Positions 1-14,248 of a DNA stretch of 25,729 nucleotides are shown in pieces. The DNA is taken from positions 1 through 25,729 of the IMG/VR virus record IMGVR_UViG_2585427783_000006; one strand, written 5' to 3'. A model generated the notes under the pieces. That model saw only the letters and a program-made list of their open reading frames with translations, was not told the origin of the DNA and did no database searches. A program made the position numbers and the translations under genes. The DNA comes from a virus. Its lineage: Duplodnaviria; Heunggongvirae; Uroviricota; Caudoviricetes. Within the stretch, counting starts at the first letter, position 1; each line of letters opens with the position of its first letter.

Positions 1-267
1 TTACTCTGCAGGTGAAGTCGGCCACTCAATATCAGGTGCGGTTGATGTATCAACACGGTTCAGCAACACCCGATACTTCTTCCAGGCTTCCAGCAACGAG
101 TTTTCTTCCTCCGTTGCGATCTCCAGATCTACAGCATCCTGAAGTGGCGCAATATGCTCACTGAATTCCTGGATGTAGAACTGTGTGGTGACGGTCTTCC
201 AGCCATTCGGCTCCTGCTGTATCGAAGCATACCAGGCTATTTCAATATCGCTATGCTGCGGCAGCAT
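1..267 (-). CDS. Short tail fibre assembly (Tfa)-like protein or fragment, 88 aa
   Basis: The C-terminal ~50 aa ([36 protein letters not shown]...EWP) align with the C-terminus of the intact Tfa at 2522-3049; the N-terminal 35 aa are unrelated. Stop codon is at 1-3. Confidence 0.5.
20..92. repeat. 73-bp direct repeat copy A (tfa 3' end); partner at 1069-1141
   Basis: Direct comparison: 71 of 73 nt identical to 1069-1141, same orientation. Confidence 0.9.
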
Positions 268-323
268 TTAACCCCTTGTAATTCATCGCCATAATTGATT
301 TAATTCATAAACAAAACTATAAC

Positions 324-992
324 ATGGTGAAACTAATGAAAAAAAACACACATGATGGGGCTAAAATTTACACACCACTTACCCTAAAGCTTTATGACTG
401 GTGGGTTTTGGGAGTATCAAATCGTCTTGCATGGGGATGTCCTACAAAGGAACACCTTCTTCCACACTTTCTGGAACATTTAGGTAACAACCATCTGGAT
501 ATTGGTGTTGGAACTGGGTTTTACCTTACTCACGTACCTGAGAGTAGTCTGATATCTTTAATGGATTTGAACGAAGCTAGCCTGAACGCGGCATCTACAA
601 GGGCTGGGGAATCAAAAATTAAACATAAAATTAGCCATGATGTTTTTGAACCTTATCCCGCGGCGTTACATGGTCAATTTGATTCCATTTCCATGTTTTA
701 CCTTCTTCACTGCCTGCCTGGAAATATATCTACAAAAAGCTGTGTAATACGCAATGCTGCGCAGGCCTTAACTGACGATGGAACTCTATACGGAGCCACA
801 ATTCTTGGCGATGGAGTTGTGCACAATAGCTTCGGTCAAAAACTGATGCGCATTTACAATCAGAAAGGCATCTTTTCAAACACAAAAGATTCCGAAGAAG
901 GCTTAACACATATACTCTCAGAGCATTTCGAGAATGTTAAAACCAAGGTTCAAGGTACTGTAGTAATGTTTTCCGCTTCAGGGAAAAAATAG
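324..992 (+). CDS. Class I SAM-dependent methyltransferase (moron), 222 aa; substrate unknown
   Basis: Glycine-rich motif I (LDIGVGTGFY) typical of Rossmann-fold SAM methyltransferases. The gene is AT-rich relative to flanking tail genes and sits on the opposite strand between tfa remnants. Alternative start ATG at 337. Confidence 0.65.
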   Translation: MVKLMKKNTHDGAKIYTPLTLKLYDWWVLGVSNRLAWGCPTKEHLLPHFLEHLGNNHLDIGVGTGFYLTHVPESSLISLMDLNEASLNAASTRAGESKIKHKISHDVFEPYPAALHGQFDSISMFYLLHCLPGNISTKSCVIRNAAQALTDDGTLYGATILGDGVVHNSFGQKLMRIYNQKGIFSNTKDSEEGLTHILSEHFENVKTKVQGTVVMFSASGKK

Positions 993-1046
993 CATCCAAC
1001 CGCAGCACGTTCTTGCTTAAGACGTGCTGCGGCATAATCCCAATGA

Positions 1047-1373
1047 TTACTCCCTGACAGGGTTCGTAGGCCACTCAATATCAGGTGCAGTTGATGTATC
1101 AACACGGTTCAGCAACACCCGATACTTTTTCCAGGCTTCCACCACCAGCACGACAAGATGCCGCATACAGTGACCCAGTCAGTCCAGTTTCCAGACAACT
1201 AGTGCGTCACCTTTTTGAAGGCGCTTTAAAGCACGTTTTAATCCAGGTCGGCCTGTCCTTGTTCCGCTTAATTTATCTTCAAATATTTGTTCACATCCTG
1301 CACAAACAAGAGCGTTTCGTTGCAGGTCTGTATTCTGGTCATTTGTTGATACCCTTACATAGCCAATCAGCAC
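1047..1373 (-). pseudogene. pin: Pin/Gin/Hin-family serine DNA invertase remnant: premature TGA after codon ~72, then in-frame fusion to a tfa 3' end
   Basis: The N-terminus (GTG start at 1373, LIGYVRVSTNDQNTDLQRNAL...VVWKLD) matches the invertase catalytic domain including the active-site Ser in YVRVS. TGA at 1179-1181 sits where Arg is expected. The frame continues [13 protein letters not shown] and then switches to [23 protein letters not shown] (Tfa C-terminus). The resolvase core and C-terminal HTH are absent. Confidence 0.8.
1069..1141. repeat. 73-bp direct repeat copy B (tfa 3' end fused to the pin remnant)
   Basis: 71 of 73 nt identical to 20-92. Confidence 0.9.
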
Positions 1374-1427
1374 GCTGAATCTCCCGTCCAAAAGCACAAA
1401 TCATGCCATGCAGGCCAGAAACGGCCA

Positions 1428-1453
1428 TTATCTAAAACCTCGGTTTACAGGAA
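1428..1453. other. Inversion crossover site (gix/pix-like), left
   Basis: TTATCTAAAACCTCGGTTTACAGGAA matches the remembered Gin/Pin recombination site consensus; an inverted copy lies at 3208-3233. Confidence 0.75.
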
Positions 1454-1477
1454 ACGGTAAACAGGGCCAGGAACGCC

Positions 1478-2518
1478 GTGCAAAAGAATGGCGATACCTT
1501 GTCCGGTGGGCTTACTTTTGCAAACGACTCAATCCTTGCCTGGATTAGAAATACTGACTGGGCGAAGATTGGATTTAAAAATGATGCCGACAGCGATACT
1601 GATTCATACATGTGGTTTGAAACAGGCGACAACGGCAATGAATATTTCAAATGGAGAAGCCGCCATGGCACCACAACAAAAGACCTGATGAATCTTAAAT
1701 GGGGTGCTTTGTATGTTCTTGTTAAAGCCCTTTTCGGCAGTGAAGTAAAAATATCGACAGTCAATGCACTGAGGATTTTTAATTCATCCTTTGGTGCTAT
1801 TTTTCGCCGTTCTGAAGAACACCTGCATATCATCCCTACACGAGAAAATGAGGGTGAAAATGGAGATATTGGGCCATTAAGGCCATTCAACATCAACTTA
1901 AGAACAGGAGTTGTGTCTGTTGGTAATGGTGCCAGGATTGATGGCGGGCTGGCACTTGGCACGAATAACGCGTTGGGTGGGAACTCAATTGTTCTTGGTG
2001 ATAATGATACCGGATTTAAACAGAATGGTGATGGTATTCTTGATGTTTACGCTAATAGTCAGCGAGTATTCCGCTTTCAGAATGGAGTGGCTATTGCTTT
2101 TAAAAACATTCAGGCAGGTGATAGTAAAAAATTCTCGCTATCCAGCTCCAACAACTCCACGAAGAACGTAGGGTTTAATTTATGGGGCACTTCATCAAGA
2201 CCAACTGTTGCAGAGCTTGGTGATGATTCAGGCTGGCATTTCTATAGTCAGCGAAATACAGATAACTCAGTAACATTTGCTGTTAACGGTCAGATACAGC
2301 CCAGCAACTGGGGGAATTTTGATTCCCGCTATGTGAAAGATGTTCGCCTGGGTACGCGTGTTGTTCAATTGATGGCGCGTGGTGGTCGTTATGAAAAAGC
2401 CGGACACGCAATTACCGGATTAAGAATCATTGGTGAAGTAGATGGCGATGATGAAGCCATCTTCAGGCCAATACAAAAATACATCAATGGCACATGGTAT
2501 AACGTCGTACAGGTGTAA
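1478..2518 (+). CDS. stf: Side tail fibre variable C-terminal cassette (Sv'), promoterless; coding continues upstream to the crossover site
   Basis: QKNGDTLSGGLTFANDSILAWIRNTDWAKIGFKNDAD...GTWYNVVQV matches the C-terminal receptor-binding part of lambda Stf. It lies immediately after the left crossover site and inside the invertible segment. Confidence 0.8.
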   Translation: MQKNGDTLSGGLTFANDSILAWIRNTDWAKIGFKNDADSDTDSYMWFETGDNGNEYFKWRSRHGTTTKDLMNLKWGALYVLVKALFGSEVKISTVNALRIFNSSFGAIFRRSEEHLHIIPTRENEGENGDIGPLRPFNINLRTGVVSVGNGARIDGGLALGTNNALGGNSIVLGDNDTGFKQNGDGILDVYANSQRVFRFQNGVAIAFKNIQAGDSKKFSLSSSNNSTKNVGFNLWGTSSRPTVAELGDDSGWHFYSQRNTDNSVTFAVNGQIQPSNWGNFDSRYVKDVRLGTRVVQLMARGGRYEKAGHAITGLRIIGEVDGDDEAIFRPIQKYINGTWYNVVQV

Positions 2519-2521
2519 TTT

Positions 2522-3049
2522 ATGCAGCATTTAAAAAATATTAAGTCTGGAAATCCAAAAACAAAAGAACAATATCAGCTAACAAAGAATTTTGATGTTA
2601 TCTGGTTATATACAGAAGACGGTAAAAACTGGTATGAGGAAGTGAAAAACTTTCAGCCAGACACAATAAAGATTGTTTACGATGCAAATAATATTATTGT
2701 CGCCATCACCAAAGATGCCTCCACGCTTAACCCTGAAGGTTATAGCGTCGTTGAGGTTCCAGATATTACAGCCAACCGCCGCGCTGATGATTCCGGTAAG
2801 TGGATGTTTAGGGACGGAGCTGTGGTTAAACGGATTTATACGGCAGACGAGCAACAACAACAGGCCGAATCACAAAAGGCCGCATTGCTTTCCGAAGCTG
2901 AATCAGTCATCCAACCGCTGGAACGCGCTGTCAGGCTGAATATGGCAACAGACGAGGAACGCACACGACTGGAAGCATGGGAACGCTACAGTGTTCTGGT
3001 CAGCCGTGTGGATACGGCAAATCCTGAATGGCCACAAAAACCAGAGTAA
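2522..3049 (+). CDS. tfa: Tail fibre assembly protein Tfa, 175 aa
   Basis: Directly follows the Sv' cassette; Tfa-like C-terminus ([32 protein letters not shown]). Confidence 0.8.
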
Positions 3050-5037
3050 AAATTAAGGCCCGATGTCCAGACCTGACTATCGCCACCAATATTCAGCCAT
3101 GAGCTATATGCGCGGCAGGCACCAATATTTTTGGTGAAGGTATCTTTTCCTGGAATATCTGCGCCGTTCTGGTTTTTCTGTAATGCGCCAGAAGCCTGAC
3201 TTACCGTTTCCTGTAAACCGAGGTATTCGATAACAGCGGCAACGGTCGATTTCGCAAGAATATCCCGCCCGACTTTTGTCAGGGTTGCCAGGCTGGCGAC
3301 ATCATTCCCCGTAAAATACGGAAACCTGTCTGCCGCAGTAGCAAGCCCGGCCAGCGCCGTCAGGGTGGCATCTTTCGGTTGCTTACCCGCAAGCGCGTTA
3401 GTCATGGTGGTCGCAAAATTCGGGTCGTTTCCCAGCGCCGCCGCCAGCTCGTTCAGCGTATTCAGTGCGTCAGGCGACGAGTCTACAAGTGCGGCAATCG
3501 CGGCCATCACATAAGCCGTGCTTGCGATCTGAGTATTATTAGTCCCTTTTGGCGCAGTTGGCGTTGTTGGCGTTCCGGTCAGCGCAGGACTGTTTAAAGG
3601 CGCTTTCTTGTTCGTTTCATCCATTACCGCCTTAACCGCTTTTGGTGTCGCAGCCAGCGTTTCAGACGGGCTGTTAGTGGCGCTACTGAGCTGAACTATC
3701 CCTTTTCGTGCCGTCGTTGCATCCTGAGCGGTATATTTTGCGTTAGCAAGGTCATATGCTGCCTTTACTGCCTTTGGTGTTGCCGCCAGTGACTCGGAAG
3801 TGCTGTTGGTCGCACTGCTGAGCTGAACCACACCTTTTTTCGTCGTGCTCGCATCTTCCAGAGATACGGCATCAGCAATATCCTCTGCCCGTTTTGCTGC
3901 TGTTTCGGCACGCGTTGCCGCGGATTCAGCAGCAACTTTGCTCTGAGATGCAGCCGTCGCACTGCCTGCCGCCTCTGATGCTTTCGTTGTTGCTGTCGTG
4001 GCACTACCTTTCGCTGCTGACGCTTGTCTGGTCGCCTCATCTTTTGAAGCAGACGCAGATGATGCCGATGACGCCGCTGAACCAGCGGACGATGCGGCTG
4101 CCGCCTTAGAGGAAGCAGCATTGTCTGCTGAAGTCTTTGCATTTGTTTCAGAGGTTTTTGCTGCAGAAGCAGACCTCGCTGCTGCAGTGGCTTGCTTAGT
4201 GGCTTCGCCAGCCTTCGTTGTGGCTGTTGAAGCGGATGATGCGGCGCTTTCTGCCGATTTTCCGGCGGCGGTGGCACTGGCTGAGGCCTGCCCGGCACTT
4301 GTTGACGCGGCACTGGCCGACGATGCAGCCGCTGTTTTTGAACCTGCCGCAGCTGAGGCACTCTGTGCTGCTGCCGTTTCAGAAGACTTAGCGTTTGTCT
4401 CAGACGTCTTTGCCGCCTTCGCGGAATTTCCTGCCGCCGTTGCCGAGGAAGCTGCACTACTGGCACTTGATGATGCATTCGTTTCTGATGATTTCGCTGC
4501 CTCTTTTGAGGCCGCCGCCCCCCGTGCCGAGGTGGCAGCTTCTGACGCCTTCGTGGTCGCTGTGGATGCAGAAGTGGCTGCCGATTTTTGTGATGCTGCG
4601 GCATTCGTTTCTGACGTTTTCGCGGCACTGGCGCTGGTAGCTGCCGCGCTTTTTGATGACTCTGCAGCAGCAGCACTTTTCGCTGCTTCACTGGCCTTTG
4701 TCGATGCCGTTCCTGCGCTGGAAGACGCTGACTGAGCCGACGACGCGGCCTGTCCGGCTGACGTGCTGGCTGCGCGTGCTGAGCCTGCAGCATCAGTCGC
4801 ATGGGTTGCCGCCTCACGGGCTGATGTGCTGGCATCACTGGCTGACTTCTTCGCGGCTGCCGTGTTCTGTGCCACTGCGGACGCGTTACGCGCCACCTCT
4901 TCCACCATCAGTTCAAAACGGCGCAGTGCCTCCGGACGGGCATCATCCTCCGTCATGGCACCGAGAAAATCATTCAGCGTACCGGGTCGGGAATCTTCAT
5001 ACACGGTGATGGTCCCGGCATGTGACGGCGGGAATCC
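2986..5037 (-). pseudogene. stf: Side tail fibre Stf constant region, N-terminally truncated by the J-stf deletion and currently joined to a non-homologous C-terminal stub
   Basis: GFPPSHAGTITVYEDS...long Ala/Ser-rich repeats...AVIEYLGLQETV matches lambda Stf from about residue 60 to the crossover point. After the crossover the frame reads antisense through the tfa 3' end. Confidence 0.8.
3208..3233. other. Inversion crossover site (gix/pix-like), right, inside the stf reading frame
   Basis: TTCCTGTAAACCGAGGTATTCGATAA is the inverted partner of 1428-1453 (16 bp identical in one half-site). It encodes ...IEYLGLQE... at the constant/variable junction of the tail fibre. Confidence 0.75.
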
Positions 5038-7165
5038 GGAACGATACCGACGCCGGATCGCCCTGCTGTCCCCATGCATTTACTGCCCGGACTGTCAGCC
5101 TGTAGTTCCCCAGAGCCAGTTGTGTGAAGCGGTAAGTGGTTTCCGTCGTCCGGGCCGTGCTGACCAGCCGCTCACTGCCGTCATCCGCTGCCACGGTCAG
5201 GCGAAGCATAAAGCTCACCCCCTTCACCACCTTCGGCGTGTCCCAGCGGGCCAGCACCTGGTATTCCCCGCTGTCTGCGGTGACTTCGGCGGTCAGATGC
5301 TGCACTGCTGGCGGCGTGACACCATTCACCGTGCCGCTCTGGTTACCGTCAAAGTGCGCCCCGTTATCCACGATGGCTTCTTTCTCCGGTACATGCTGCA
5401 CTGCAGTGATGGCATACGTACCGTCGTCGTTCTCACGGATACTCACACAGCGGAACAGGCGCTGGCGCAGCGTCGGCAGCTTCAGCCCCCACACGCTGTA
5501 CTCGGCAACGCCGTCAGGAACCCGGCTCACTTTCACCTTCACGCCGTCGGTGATGGACTGGACCTCCACGCTGACCGGATTGCCACTTCCGTCAACCAGG
5601 CTTATCAGCGTGGTGCCGGAGGATGGCAGCGTGATTTCACGGTCGAGCGTCAGCGTCCGGGTCTGGCTGTTCACCGCCAGCACGCGCCCGCCGGTGCTGA
5701 TACCGGCATAGTCATCATCGCAGATTTCAATGACATCGCCCGGTACATGGCGAAGCCCTTCGGCACCCACGCTGAAGTCCACGGTCTGCGTCTCCAGCAG
5801 TTCTGTTTTAATCAGCCACAGCCCGGCGCGGTGTGCCTGCCCCCGGCTGGTACAGCCAAAAGCATCCATCTTCGTGACGTTACGGCCGTAACGGGCAATG
5901 GCCTGCGTGTCCTCCACAAGCTCTGTCGCCGTCTCCCAGCCGTTGTTCGGGTCAATCCAGTTCACCTCAACGGCATTATGGCGGTCCTTCAGGGCGCTGA
6001 AGCTGTAGCGGAACGGCGCGCCATCATCCGGCATCACCACATTACTGCGGTTATAGGTCCACACCTTATCTGATGGTCGGTCCTGCACGAACGTCAGCGT
6101 CTGCCCGTTCCATACCGGCATACAGCGCATCGCCGAGCAGAAATCACTGAGCACATCCCACGCCTTGCGCTGTGTGGTCAGGTACGCATTACAGGTGATG
6201 CGCGGCTCCGTGCCGCCAAAGCCGTCCGGCACTGACTGGTCGCAGTACTGGCCGATAACATACAACGCCCATTTATCCACATCCGCCGCACCAAGACGTT
6301 TCCCCATGCCGTAGCGCGGATGGGTCAGCATATCCCACAGACACCAGGCCATGTTGTTGCTGTATGCCGGTTTAAACGTTCCGTCCCAGATACCGCTGTA
6401 TTGCCGCGTCTGCGGGTTATAATTCGACGGCACCTGCAGAATACGCCCGCGCAGATGATAATTACGGCTCACCTGCTGGCTGCCGAACTGCTCCGAGTCC
6501 ACCTGCACGCCGACCAGTACCGTGTTCGGGTAGCACTGTTTCACATCGATAATTTCGGTGTATGACGACCAGAGCGTTTTGTTCTGCAGCTGGTCTGTGG
6601 TGCTGTCCGGCGTCATCCTGCGCATCCGGATACTGAACGGGCGCGGCGGCAGGTTATCCACCACCACCGAGGCCAGATACTGTGAAGTGGTTTTACCCTT
6701 AATGGTGATGTCTTTTTCCGTCACCCAGCCACCGTTACGCTGGATCTGAACCAGCAGGCGGACTTCCGACGGATTCCTGTCCCCCTTTGAGGTGGTTTCC
6801 ACCAGTGCCTGCACGCCGAAGGTAAAACGCAGTCGGTCAATGTTTGCCGACGTGATGGTCCGGGTGATCGGCGTGTCGTATTTCACTTCCGTACCCAGCA
6901 CCGTCTCGGAGCCGGAGGATTCAAATCCCTCCGGCGGTGTCTGCTCCTGCTCACCGGCCCGGAACACCACCGTGACGCCGGATATATTGGTATTCCCCTC
7001 ACTGTCCAGCACCGGCGTACTGTTCAGCAGCACGCTTTTTAATCCATCCACCGGACCTTCAACCGGCCCTTCGCTGATAGCATCGATCACACTCAGCAGC
7101 TGCGTGGACTTCAGGTTGTCCTTCGCTTCGCGCGGGGTATGCCCCTTACTGCTGCCTTTACCCAT
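4997..7165 (-). pseudogene. J: Host specificity protein J, truncated after about residue 716; C-terminal receptor-binding region deleted
   Basis: MGKGSSKGHTPREAKDNLKSTQLLSVIDAISEGP... is near-identical to lambda J through ...ASVSFRI, then 11 unrelated codons and a stop. Full J is remembered as about 1130 aa. Confidence 0.85.
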
Positions 7166-7897: not shown

Positions 7898-8538
7898 TTT
7901 TCGGTATACCTCTCTCGTTTGCTCAGTTGTTCAGGAATATGGTGCAGCAGCTCGCCGTCACCACAGTAAATGGCGGCATGATTCGGCACCGATGAACCAA
8001 AACAGCACAGCAGCACATCGCCCGGCTGCGCCGCTGACAACGGCACCTGATACAGCCCTGTGGCCTCCAGATTATCCAGATAGAGATTCTGACCGTTACG
8101 CCACCAGTCATCCTCACGATGAAAATCCGGCATCTCAATCCCCGCCAGATGGTAAGCATCCCGGAACAGCGTGTAACAGTCCGTCACCCCGTGCTCAAAG
8201 CGCCGCCCGGTGAGATGCGGCACACAGCGGAATTTATGAATCGCCCCCCGGCAGACCAGCCACCACGGCAAATCACTCTGCACCTGCAACCGCCGGTCAG
8301 CCTCACTCAGCCAGGGCAGACCACCGGGGTGACTGTGGACCAGCGCCACAATCTCACCCTGCATTTCTGCCTGCAGCCAGTCCTCCGGAGCCATCCGGAA
8401 ATAATCCTCCGGCTCACCGGAAATATTCACGCCGGGAAAATATCTTTCCCCCTCCGGCGTTCTCACCACGAAGCCGCACGACTCCGCTGGCGCACATCGC
8501 CGGGCGTGCGCCAGGATCGCTGATTCTGTCTCTGTCAT
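7795..8538 (-). CDS. K: Tail assembly protein K (JAMM/MPN plus NlpC/P60-like)
   Basis: MTETESAILAHARRCAPAESCGFVV...HSHPGG... Start chosen at the ATG at 8538; the longer ORF listed in the track is an upstream extension overlapping L. Confidence 0.8.
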   Translation of the reverse strand: MTETESAILAHARRCAPAESCGFVVRTPEGERYFPGVNISGEPEDYFRMAPEDWLQAEMQGEIVALVHSHPGGLPWLSEADRRLQVQSDLPWWLVCRGAIHKFRCVPHLTGRRFEHGVTDCYTLFRDAYHLAGIEMPDFHREDDWWRNGQNLYLDNLEATGLYQVPLSAAQPGDVLLCCFGSSVPNHAAIYCGDGELLHHIPEQLSKRERYTEKWQRRTHSLWRHRAWHASAFTGIYNDLAAASTFV

Positions 8539-9570: not shown

Positions 9571-12041
9571 CGTCCACCTCCGGAGAACAGACCACCATCG
9601 CGCATCTGTGCCTGAATTTCATCACGGGCCCCCTTACGGGCCATGTCATACACTGCCTTCATCATCTGTGGACCTGGCAGACCATTCGTACCGTCGTTCT
9701 GAATCACCACGTGATTGTTCTGATTAAAATTAATGCCTTCCGCCCGCCGCATCTGCGCCGGACTTCCGGCACCGCCCACATAACCACCTTCCGCATAGCC
9801 GCGCATCAGCCGGTAGAGATTTCCCACGCCAATCCGGCTGGTTGCCTCCTTCGTGAAGACAAATTCACCACGGTGAACAATCCCCGCTGGCTCATATTTG
9901 CCGCCAGTTCCCGTAAATCCCCCGGTCGCAAAATGGAATTTTGCCGCAGCAGCCTGAATGGCTGTACCGCCTGACACTGATGCGCCACCACCGGCAGCAC
10001 CGCCAATGGCGCTGCCGATACTCCCGACAATTCCCACCATTGCCTGCTTAAGCAGAATTTCTGTCATCATGGACAGCACGGAACGGGTGAAGCTGCGCCA
10101 GTTCTGCTCACTGCCGGTCAGCATCGCCGCCATATTCTGTGCAATACCATCAAAGGTCTGCGTGGCAGCACTTTTAACCTGCGACATACTGTCCGTGGCG
10201 CTCTCTTTCCACTCACTCCAGCCTGACCTGAGGCCTGCCATCCAGCTCCCGCGAAGCTGGTCTTCAGCTGCCCAGGTCTTTTTCTGCTCTGACATGACGT
10301 TATTCAGCGCCAGAGGATTATCGCCATACTGTTCCTTCAGGCGCTGTTCCGTGGCTTCCCTCGCTGCCTGCCGGTCAGTCAGCCCCCGGTTTTTCGCATC
10401 AATGGCGGCCCGTTTTGCCCGTTGCTGCTGTGCGAATTTATCCGCCTGCTGTGCCAGCGCGTTCAGGTGTTCCTGATAGGTGACCTTGTCGCCAAGTGCA
10501 GCCAGCTGGCGTTTGTACTCCAGCGTCTCATCTTTATGCGCCAGCAGGGATTTCTCCTGTGCAGACAGCTGGCGACGTTGCGCCGCCTCCTCCAGTACCG
10601 CGAACTGACTCTCCGCCTTCCACAAATCCCGGCGCTGCTGGCTGATTTTTTCATTCGCTCCACTATGCTGCTCAAGCATTTTTAGTTCAGCTTGTAACGC
10701 AAGAAGAGCTGCATGTGCTCGATCTTCCTGACGCTCTCCCGCAGCGGACTGCTTCGGCTTTTTCAGCGTCGCTTCATAGTCCTTTTTCGCCGCCGCCATC
10801 AGCGTGTTGTAATCTGCCTGCAGGATTTTCCCGTCTTTCAGTGCCTTGTTCAGTTCTTCCTGACGAGCGGTATATTTCTCCAGCGGCGTCTGCAGGCGTT
10901 CGTAAGCCTTCTGCGCCTCTTCGGTATATTTCAGCCGTGATGCCTCAGACTCGGCCCAGTCCTTTGCTGCCATCTCTCTGGCCTTTTCAAGATCGGCCTG
11001 CAACGTGGCGGCTGAAAGCCCAAGTTGCGCATTCGCTCTGTCCTCCCATGCTCCCCGGAGATTGGCAAGAAATGCTGAGGTTTTACCGCGCCGGTGGCTC
11101 CGGCTCTGATACCACTGCCATTTTTTGTCCGCCTCATCAAAAGCCTTTTCTGCTTTCTCCAGCATTCCCTGGGCAGTGTCCGGGCGACCAATATCCAGCA
11201 CCGCATCCCACATGGATTTGAATGCCCGTGCTGTCCTGTCTGCCCAGGTCTCCAGCGTGCCCATGTTCTCTTTCAGGCGGAGGGTCTGGTCATCAAACCC
11301 TTTCGTTGCGGCCTCGTTCGCCGCCTGCAATGCCCCGGCTTCATCTCCGGAACGCTGCAACTGAGCAACATACGCAATCTGCTCCGCCGTCACGTTATGG
11401 AACTGACGTGCCATCGCTGTCAGTCCCGACGTCGGGTCTGTGGTCAGCTTCCCGAAGGCTTCAGCGACCTTGTCCACCTCCACGCCGGATGCAGAGGAGA
11501 AACGCGCCACACTCTGGCTGATCGCCTCAAACTGCTCACCACCACGCACACCGGCATTCACCAGCGCCGTCAGTGACTCGCTGGTCTGGTTAAACGTCAG
11601 CCCTGCCGCCTGCCCGGCTCTGGACAGGACCAGCATACGATCTGCCGTCAGTCCCGCCTGATTGCCGGAAAGGACCAGCGTTTTGTTGAAATCGGACAGG
11701 GTTGAGTTGCCCTGATACCAGGCATACGCCAGCGCACCGGTCGCCACCGCCAGCGAGGTGGCCCCCACCATCGGCAGGGTGATCGCACCGGCAAGCCCCC
11801 TGAACATGGGGATCATCCCGCCGAAGGAGTCCTTCACCTGACCACCCTGTTGCAGCAGGATCAGCCACGGACTTTGCCCGCCTGCAAGCTGCGTGGCCAC
11901 GTCAGTGAACTGTGCAGGCAGCATACGCATGGCGGCTTTATACTGTCCGACGGAAATGGCCATTGCGGCGGCACCGGGCACCGCCGTTCTGCTGATACGG
12001 CTGAGGTTTTCAACGGCCTGCTCAAGACCTTTTATGGCCAT
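9567..12041 (-). CDS. H: Tape measure protein H carrying the N-terminal ~29 codons of tail gene Z (in-frame Z'-'H deletion fusion), 824 aa
   Basis: The N-terminus MAIKGLEQAVENLSRISRTAVPGAAAMAI matches the remembered lambda Z start; from SVGQYKAAMRMLPAQFTDVATQLAGG onward it matches lambda H. The gene begins 12 nt after the FII stop, where Z should sit. Confidence 0.75.
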   Translation of the reverse strand: MAIKGLEQAVENLSRISRTAVPGAAAMAISVGQYKAAMRMLPAQFTDVATQLAGGQSPWLILLQQGGQVKDSFGGMIPMFRGLAGAITLPMVGATSLAVATGALAYAWYQGNSTLSDFNKTLVLSGNQAGLTADRMLVLSRAGQAAGLTFNQTSESLTALVNAGVRGGEQFEAISQSVARFSSASGVEVDKVAEAFGKLTTDPTSGLTAMARQFHNVTAEQIAYVAQLQRSGDEAGALQAANEAATKGFDDQTLRLKENMGTLETWADRTARAFKSMWDAVLDIGRPDTAQGMLEKAEKAFDEADKKWQWYQSRSHRRGKTSAFLANLRGAWEDRANAQLGLSAATLQADLEKAREMAAKDWAESEASRLKYTEEAQKAYERLQTPLEKYTARQEELNKALKDGKILQADYNTLMAAAKKDYEATLKKPKQSAAGERQEDRAHAALLALQAELKMLEQHSGANEKISQQRRDLWKAESQFAVLEEAAQRRQLSAQEKSLLAHKDETLEYKRQLAALGDKVTYQEHLNALAQQADKFAQQQRAKRAAIDAKNRGLTDRQAAREATEQRLKEQYGDNPLALNNVMSEQKKTWAAEDQLRGSWMAGLRSGWSEWKESATDSMSQVKSAATQTFDGIAQNMAAMLTGSEQNWRSFTRSVLSMMTEILLKQAMVGIVGSIGSAIGGAAGGGASVSGGTAIQAAAAKFHFATGGFTGTGGKYEPAGIVHRGEFVFTKEATSRIGVGNLYRLMRGYAEGGYVGGAGSPAQMRRAEGINFNQNNHVVIQNDGTNGLPGPQMMKAVYDMARKGARDEIQAQMRDGGLFSGGGR

Positions 12042-13880: not shown

Positions 13881-14248
13881 AAAAAAATCCCGTAAAAAAA
13901 GCCGCACACCAGCGATGCAATATCCTGCTGGTGGATGAACGACAGAATCTTCACCGACACCACCGATACCAGCACCGCACACAGCGCATCTGCCGATGTA
14001 CCGTCATACCCTGTTTTTGATGCAATCCAGGCTGACAGCACACGCGCTCCCAGCACGCCGACAATAAACGACACCAGAAAATGCGCCACCACGCGCCAGA
14101 CTGAAAGTGACTGCGGCATCGTTGCCACAAATAACGCCCCGGCGAACGCGCCAAACACAATCCCGAAATCCATCCCGGTAAACAGCCCGAATACCGTCGC
14201 GCCACCCAGCGCCGCAGCCGTGCCGGAACCGGATAAGGGTTCAGACAT
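13736..14248 (-). CDS. Predicted 3-TM membrane protein (holin-like?); its 3' end reads into the E start region and is probably disrupted
   Basis: MSEPLSGSGTAAALGGATVFGLFTGMDFGIVFGAFAGALFVA... has three hydrophobic helices in the first ~125 aa. The last ~45 codons are low-complexity (CRCTQPPSCWRQ...) and overlap the E start by about 145 nt. Confidence 0.45.
   Translation of the reverse strand: MSEPLSGSGTAAALGGATVFGLFTGMDFGIVFGAFAGALFVATMPQSLSVWRVVAHFLVSFIVGVLGARVLSAWIASKTGYDGTSADALCAVLVSVVSVKILSFIHQQDIASLVCGFFYGIFLCRCTQPPSCWRQMSRNLSLIRCFCVSFSVKAIPSPRRKSISHKFRDW

Follow-up and report, generated by a model that had tools for sequence, protein, structure and literature searches.

Gene organization of the tail fibre region

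The window analysed in this study is the whole stretch of 25,729 nt of IMG/VR virus record IMGVR_UViG_2585427783_000006 (positions 1 to 25,729). A minus-strand open reading frame of 697 aa at 2986-5079 was identified as the lambda-type side tail fibre gene stf by its matches to PF03406 and to the distal half of PF08400. The constant part of this gene lies at 3234..5079 on the minus strand. It contains PF03406 and only profile positions 65-134 of PF08400, and it is 100% identical to the corresponding part of locus L003, the same prophage in strain L1_E925 (NZ_LR883050.1).

A pair of 33-nt inverted repeats with 94% complementarity was found at 1428-1460 and 3201-3233. The left repeat (IR-L) agrees at every position with the gin-proximal inverted repeat of phage D108, and the right repeat (IR-R), which is located inside the stf frame, differs from the D108 G-segment repeat at 2 positions. 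Both are gix-like. Each repeat encodes the peptide LGLQETV, which on the left is in frame with the variable fibre part Sv and on the right with stf and Sv'; the frame on the left-repeat side reads NLGLQETVNRARNAVQKNGDTLSGG. The crossover site therefore sits inside the fibre frame and separates the constant N-terminal part from the alternative C-terminal parts, in frame on both sides. The presence of the repeat pair indicates that the right crossover site is real. Paired short inverted sites with a gix/cix-type core are the mark of segments served by the Din family (Gin, Cin, Pin and Hin), and window 1428-3233 is a tail fibre segment of the invertible Mu G / P1 C type.

Between the repeats, one variable cassette has survived. 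Sv is a plus-strand frame of 346 aa at 1478..2518 with a PF21446 (Gp34_trimer) match. It encodes a variable C-terminal fibre part that is not joined to stf at present, and no stop interrupts its frame from the crossover site (about 1437) onward. The tfa gene follows directly downstream at 2522..3049 on the plus strand (175 aa; PF02413 Caudo_TAP, E = 1e-37). Its domain and its position behind a variable fibre part identify it as the Tfa/U-type tail fibre assembly chaperone of this cassette. The 3' end of Sv (from window 2400) and the adjacent tfa are 93-96% identical to S-U of P1 and to Sv'-U' of P7. Sv is joined to stf in the sister strains ATCC 43896 and E1433.

Two complete and opposed Sv-chaperone cassettes were looked for in the window; only Sv-tfa and a 46-codon Sv' stub are present, and tfa' is absent. 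Beyond IR-R, stf encodes SQASGALQKNQNGADIPGKDTF...DSQVWT and then 25 junk residues. From EYLG to VWT, 55 of 55 residues are identical to the 989-aa fibre of L003, which has 266 further residues. This identity to a full-length sister fibre indicates that the resemblance of the stub to a variable domain is not due to chance. The original prediction had described 2986-3207 as a remnant in which the stf frame starts like a variable domain and then enters tfa antisense sequence, and both parts of this description hold. The interval is resolved into an authentic Sv' remnant at 3064..3201 (minus strand; 46 codons, stf residues 627-672; 100% DNA identity to L003 from 8143 onward) and a read-through tail at 2986..3063 (minus strand; 25 non-native codons and a stop). 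The tail is made of spacer followed by antisense tfa, and its final 64 nt (2986-3049) are antisense to the plus-strand tfa 3' end.

The invertase gene beside the segment is truncated

An intact serine invertase was searched for beside the segment, and only a remnant (pin'/gin') was found there, at 1179..1397 on the minus strand. It is a frame of 72 codons that ends in TGA, beyond which the sequence is joined to a 3' fragment of tfa. The match to PF00239 is confined to the N-terminal half of the profile (positions 2-73 of 145). For sequence comparison, D108 gin and P1 cin were chosen. Identity to D108 gin is 97% over the first 191 nt and complete over the first 120 nt. Positions of about 1284-1355 are collinear with the annotated 72-bp enhancer of P1 cin, with 14/14 and 28/32 matches, and may represent its homologue.

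Within window 1145-1397 (minus strand), a TGA stands at the position of a Gin Arg codon, about 12 in-frame codons follow, and the sequence is then fused to C-terminal codons of tfa. The remnant and its tfa fragment are also present in the Rac-type prophage of strain PSJ-23, which indicates that the fusion junction is old and widespread. No alignment was obtained between the remnant and the PSJ-23 gene annotated as 'pinR'. Further to the left, a class I SAM-dependent methyltransferase gene (324-992; 222 aa) occupies the place expected for the rest of the invertase gene. It is bracketed by 79-nt direct repeats (95% identical) at 17-95 and 1066-1144, which are copies of the tfa 3' end.

Alignment with intact segments identifies a 1,350-bp deletion

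As a direct test, the window was aligned to the intact segments of sister prophages adjoining potB. The potB-side prophage was found in six complete ETEC genomes (L1_E925, ATCC 43896, E1433, E54, E1648 and E1654) at near identity (99.7-100%), with the order Sv-tfa-terminator-tfa'-Sv' intact. In L003, the prophage end beside potB carries Sv, tfa, a convergent tfa' (177 aa) and the 989-aa fibre. The flanking genes are as in the window, namely a tfa remnant, the SAM methyltransferase, a tfa fragment and a truncated recombinase. Annotated relatives have a tfa' of 177 aa and a fibre of 989-1029 aa, and the intact segment measures 3,157 bp from repeat to repeat. The PSJ-23 Rac-type prophage, which gave the first two-piece match, was discarded as a comparator since it is a different and separately decayed locus.

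Window 1-3064 aligns to L003 3729-6792 with 99.74% identity (8 SNPs), and window 3064-5038 aligns to L003 8143-10117 with 100% identity. L003 6793-8142, exactly 1,350 bp, is missing from the window. The junction lies at 3064..3065, where the T at 3064 can be assigned to either side. The missing piece is present at the same position and at 100% identity in 6/6 sister potB loci. It contains tfa' in full (177 aa) and the final 266 codons of Sv'. The loss comprises tfa', one half of the terminator and 85% of Sv', from its C-terminal end. Five of the 8 SNPs fall within 77 nt at the start of Sv (1521-1597). E1648 and E1654 have the allele of the window there (99.97%), which points to a short stretch of recombination or conversion in L003.

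The original prediction held that the second Sv-tfa cassette of a two-cassette segment had been deleted and had left a stub, and that related prophages with the same short sequence would speak against it. The six relatives carry the full two-cassette segment instead, and the alignment to intact related segments that had been proposed as a check fixed the endpoints to the base. The prediction is thus supported, with a deletion of 1,350 bp against six relatives. It is refined in one respect: the second cassette was not lost as a whole, and 46 codons of Sv' remain.

The short form was rare in all collections searched. An uninterrupted tfa/tfa' junction occurs in 662 genomes, and in 454 genomes Sv' runs unbroken through the right deletion endpoint. 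Window 2400-3700 was spanned by 0 of 5,426 complete E. coli genomes, every match breaking at 3064. Exact-match scans with the 35-nt deletion junction gave no hit among GTDB species representative genomes and none among JGI metagenome contigs. An exact look-up of the 697-aa product returned a single contig, JOQM01000038.1 (GCA_000714095.1), reported in 3 samples; a literature search on the WGS accession JOQM00000000 found no paper. The junction counts and the single-contig look-up indicate that the short form is a private, derived allele. The second cassette is incomplete in the window and complete in all six sister loci, so the window is a degenerate derivative of this class of segment and not an intact member.

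The deletion endpoints and the terminator hairpin

In the relatives, the spacer between tfa and tfa' folds into a perfect hairpin, AAGGCCCG-ATAG-CGGGCCTT (-19 kcal/mol, z = -5.2). The D108 record has rho-independent terminators annotated on both strands at the equivalent place. Of this bidirectional terminator, the window keeps only the left stem arm (AAGGCCCG) at 3055..3062; the hairpin is lost, and the fold reaches -6.6 kcal/mol (z = -1.3). The left endpoint of the deletion, GGCCCGAT|AGCG, lies in the loop of this hairpin. The right endpoint, GCGCGGTT|GTCC, lies inside Sv'. The microhomology between the two is 1 nt (T), which indicates illegitimate recombination and not an invertase event. 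We infer replication slippage or end joining as the mechanism. The hairpin might have favoured the deletion, a speculation built on the position of one endpoint.

Comparison with known fibre switches

The intact segment of the relatives resembles the G segment of Mu and D108, with a crossover site in the fibre gene, convergent S(v)-U and S'(v)-U' cassettes, a bidirectional terminator and an invertase beside one repeat. With the D108 G segment it is collinear, at 94% identity over 2,278 nt and at 91-94% over most of the 3.1-kb segment. In place of Mu S, the constant part is a Stf of the lambda type (PF08400 and PF03406), and the prophage is lambdoid. The window also differs from Mu and D108 in that its U'-S'v cassette is mostly deleted and its invertase is a 72-codon remnant.

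A similar likeness was found with the C segment of P1 and P7 and its cin gene, which has the order Sc | cix | Sv-U-U'-Sv' | cix | cin with the enhancer within the invertase 5' end. The intact segment is collinear with the P1 C segment at 90% over 2.2 kb. The P1 record has cix sites annotated inside a 4,256-bp C segment, whereas only the 33-nt repeats are found here. The P1 segment and cin are intact, but their counterparts in the window are decayed.

The closest parallels in setting are the P segment of e14 (pinE) and the B segment of S. boydii (pinB), where a Din-type fibre switch also lies in a defective lambdoid prophage. The B segment was reportedly described by Tominaga et al. in 1991 as G-like but placed on a different constant region. 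The window presents the same situation with respect to its constant region. The e14 and S. boydii elements have a working invertase and two readable alternatives, whereas the window has one cassette and a stub and lacks an intact local invertase. Inversion within a defective prophage has a precedent in e14, which still flips in culture (PMC4272514).

Origin of the short form

The locus is very probably the decayed form of a Mu G / P1 C-type switch that closes a cryptic lambdoid E. coli prophage beside potB, and a single illegitimate deletion of 1,350 bp has shortened it. Under this reading, the ancestor would have had a 3,157-bp segment with convergent Sv-tfa and Sv'-tfa' cassettes and a bidirectional terminator hairpin between them. 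Inversion between the two gix-like sites in stf would have placed Sv or Sv' on the constant shaft. In one step, the deletion would then have taken away the distal terminator arm, the entire tfa' gene and the final 266 codons of Sv'. The outcome would be the 46-codon Sv' stub fused to stf and followed by 25 junk codons antisense to tfa.

Other origins of the junction were weighed. The source strain might be intact, with 1,350 bp skipped by a short-read assembler. The window does come from a draft WGS contig, JOQM01000038.1. A related O6:H16 strain (L009) carries a stf/Sv'/tfa' block at 99.5-100% identity in another prophage, close to ompW, and the source genome may thus contain more than one copy of the region. 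Against this, the junction joins two unique points with 1 nt in common. The right endpoint lies within the possible repeat and not at its edge, and repeat collapse does not give such a junction. Three other deletions with clean microhomology are present on the same contig, which was reported in 3 samples, and the sister genomes, which are complete and derived from long reads, have comparable independent deletions in this prophage. An assembly artefact is accordingly very unlikely. It is even less probable that the one-cassette form is ancestral and that an insertion or the capture of a cassette brought tfa' and the C-terminus of Sv' into the relatives. Tail fibre cassettes do undergo horizontal exchange, and the left endpoint coincides with a module boundary at the tfa/tfa' terminator. 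However, the window retains half of a perfect 8-bp hairpin, and its Sv' fragment ends in the middle of a domain and runs into antisense sequence. The full arrangement is common to Mu/D108, P1 and hundreds of E. coli genomes while the short junction is unique, and the flanks are 99.7-100% identical to the intact loci.

The least credible origin is an invertase-mediated deletion, in which Pin or Gin would have joined a crossover site to a directly oriented pseudo-site and excised the cassette. Serine invertases can use pseudo-sites, and a different deletion in E1648 and E1654 has one endpoint inside IR-R. However, both endpoints of the 1,350-bp deletion are well away from the crossover sites, and neither inverted repeat is damaged. 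No AAACC-NN-GGTTT core and no gix-like half-sites were found at GGCCCGAT|AGCG or GCGCGGTT|GTCC. Endpoints of this kind beside two intact repeats do not fit invertase chemistry. The illegitimate deletion remains the preferred origin, and the loss of 1,350 bp is ordinary prophage decay within a well-known type of system.

Orientation of the segment and inversion in trans

Both orientations of the segment were found among the sister strains. The orientation is window-like in L003, L006 and L008 and flipped in L004, L005 and L007. The breakpoints fall exactly within the inverted repeats, including the one that corresponds to IR-L at 1428..1460. The genome of the window itself provides one assembled orientation. 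The invertase is truncated in 6/6 sister loci. Both orientations together with a truncated local invertase point to inversion in trans, which implies that another Din invertase probably flips these segments. RecA exchange between the 33-nt repeats is a less likely cause of the flipping among the sisters. The occurrence of both orientations despite a dead local invertase is natural evidence for trans inversion.

The window keeps both crossover sites and the enhancer-homologous 5' end of the invertase gene, and its segment could therefore presumably still be flipped in trans. In the present orientation, the fibre lacks a receptor-binding tip and its chaperone and is probably non-functional. After a flip, stf would continue into the intact Sv-tfa cassette, which is the state seen in ATCC 43896 and E1433. 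It is conceivable that the deletion turned a two-state host-range switch into a one-cassette ON/OFF switch flipped in trans, and separately that stf 5034-5038 is a genuine recombination hot spot; we consider this reading unlikely.

A second prophage presents a different loss. L009 (NZ_CP024232.1 4795329-4798952), near ompW/trp in an O6:H16 ETEC strain, has a tfa'-Sv'-stf block that is 99.5-100% identical to the potB prophage. It lacks Sv, IR-L, the invertase and part of tfa. This pattern is a complementary way to freeze the switch.

Other deletions in the prophage

The 1,350-bp deletion is one of four in the prophage of the window, and the three others have clean microhomology. The second was defined against L003 and ATCC 43896. 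It removed 2,278 bp at the junction 5028-5038, with microhomology of CGGATT plus CCGC, and the stf N-terminus, lom and the J C-terminus are gone. This left J (4997-7165, 722 aa) overlapping stf in a different frame. Loss of the stf N-terminus in this deletion is also the reason that the PF08400 match starts at profile position 65. A complete lambda-type Stf, with the PF08400 N-terminus, PF03406 and a receptor-binding C-terminus, is thus absent from the window, where the C-terminal domain is cut after 46 residues. With its N-terminus lost and its C-terminal domain cut, the gene is a pseudogene of the lambda-type Stf family.

The other two deletions were defined against ATCC 43896. At 11955-11957, 2,655 bp are missing, from the tape-measure N-terminus through the tail tube region. 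At 13902-13908, the missing 10.65 kb held head, portal and terminase genes, an IS66 copy and part of the lysis genes. Deletions have therefore hit J, the stf N-terminus, lom, the tail tube and tape-measure region, head, terminase and lysis genes, which indicates that the prophage is dead regardless of its fibre switch. Among the sister ETEC strains, the deletions in this prophage differ from one strain to the next.

Taken alone, the 1,350-bp loss carries little weight, as one more pseudogenising deletion, and the gene is best annotated as a truncated stf with a lost tfa'. As a base-resolved example of the decay of an invertible fibre switch, it has modest value. It also belongs to a closely related ETEC group in which the same prophage is found both intact and variously deleted.

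Rearrangement junctions in the stf N-terminal codons

Three independent rearrangement junctions were found within about 5 nt of each other, in the stf codons for V-D-G-F-P-P (window 5034-5038; site GGACGGATT|CCCGCC). One is the J-stf deletion of the window at 5034-5038. Another is a 1,818-bp deletion in E1648 and E1654 (L006/L008, about 8167-8172), whose other end lies inside the gix-like IR-R. The third, at 7971 of L009, belongs to the prophage on the ompW side in 2014EL-1346-6 and links stf to a different fragment of J. An invertase-mediated origin of the E1648/E1654 deletion was considered and rejected, since its junction reads CGGATTACAGG and not CGGTTTACAGG, as expected from central-dinucleotide exchange.

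The stf N-terminal codons may be a hot spot of illegitimate recombination. If so, they would represent a sequence-directed route of prophage decay. When a 200-nt probe from the stf N-terminus was compared with all E. coli genomes, counting only the best place per record, a full-length copy was found in 4,800 of 4,820 records.
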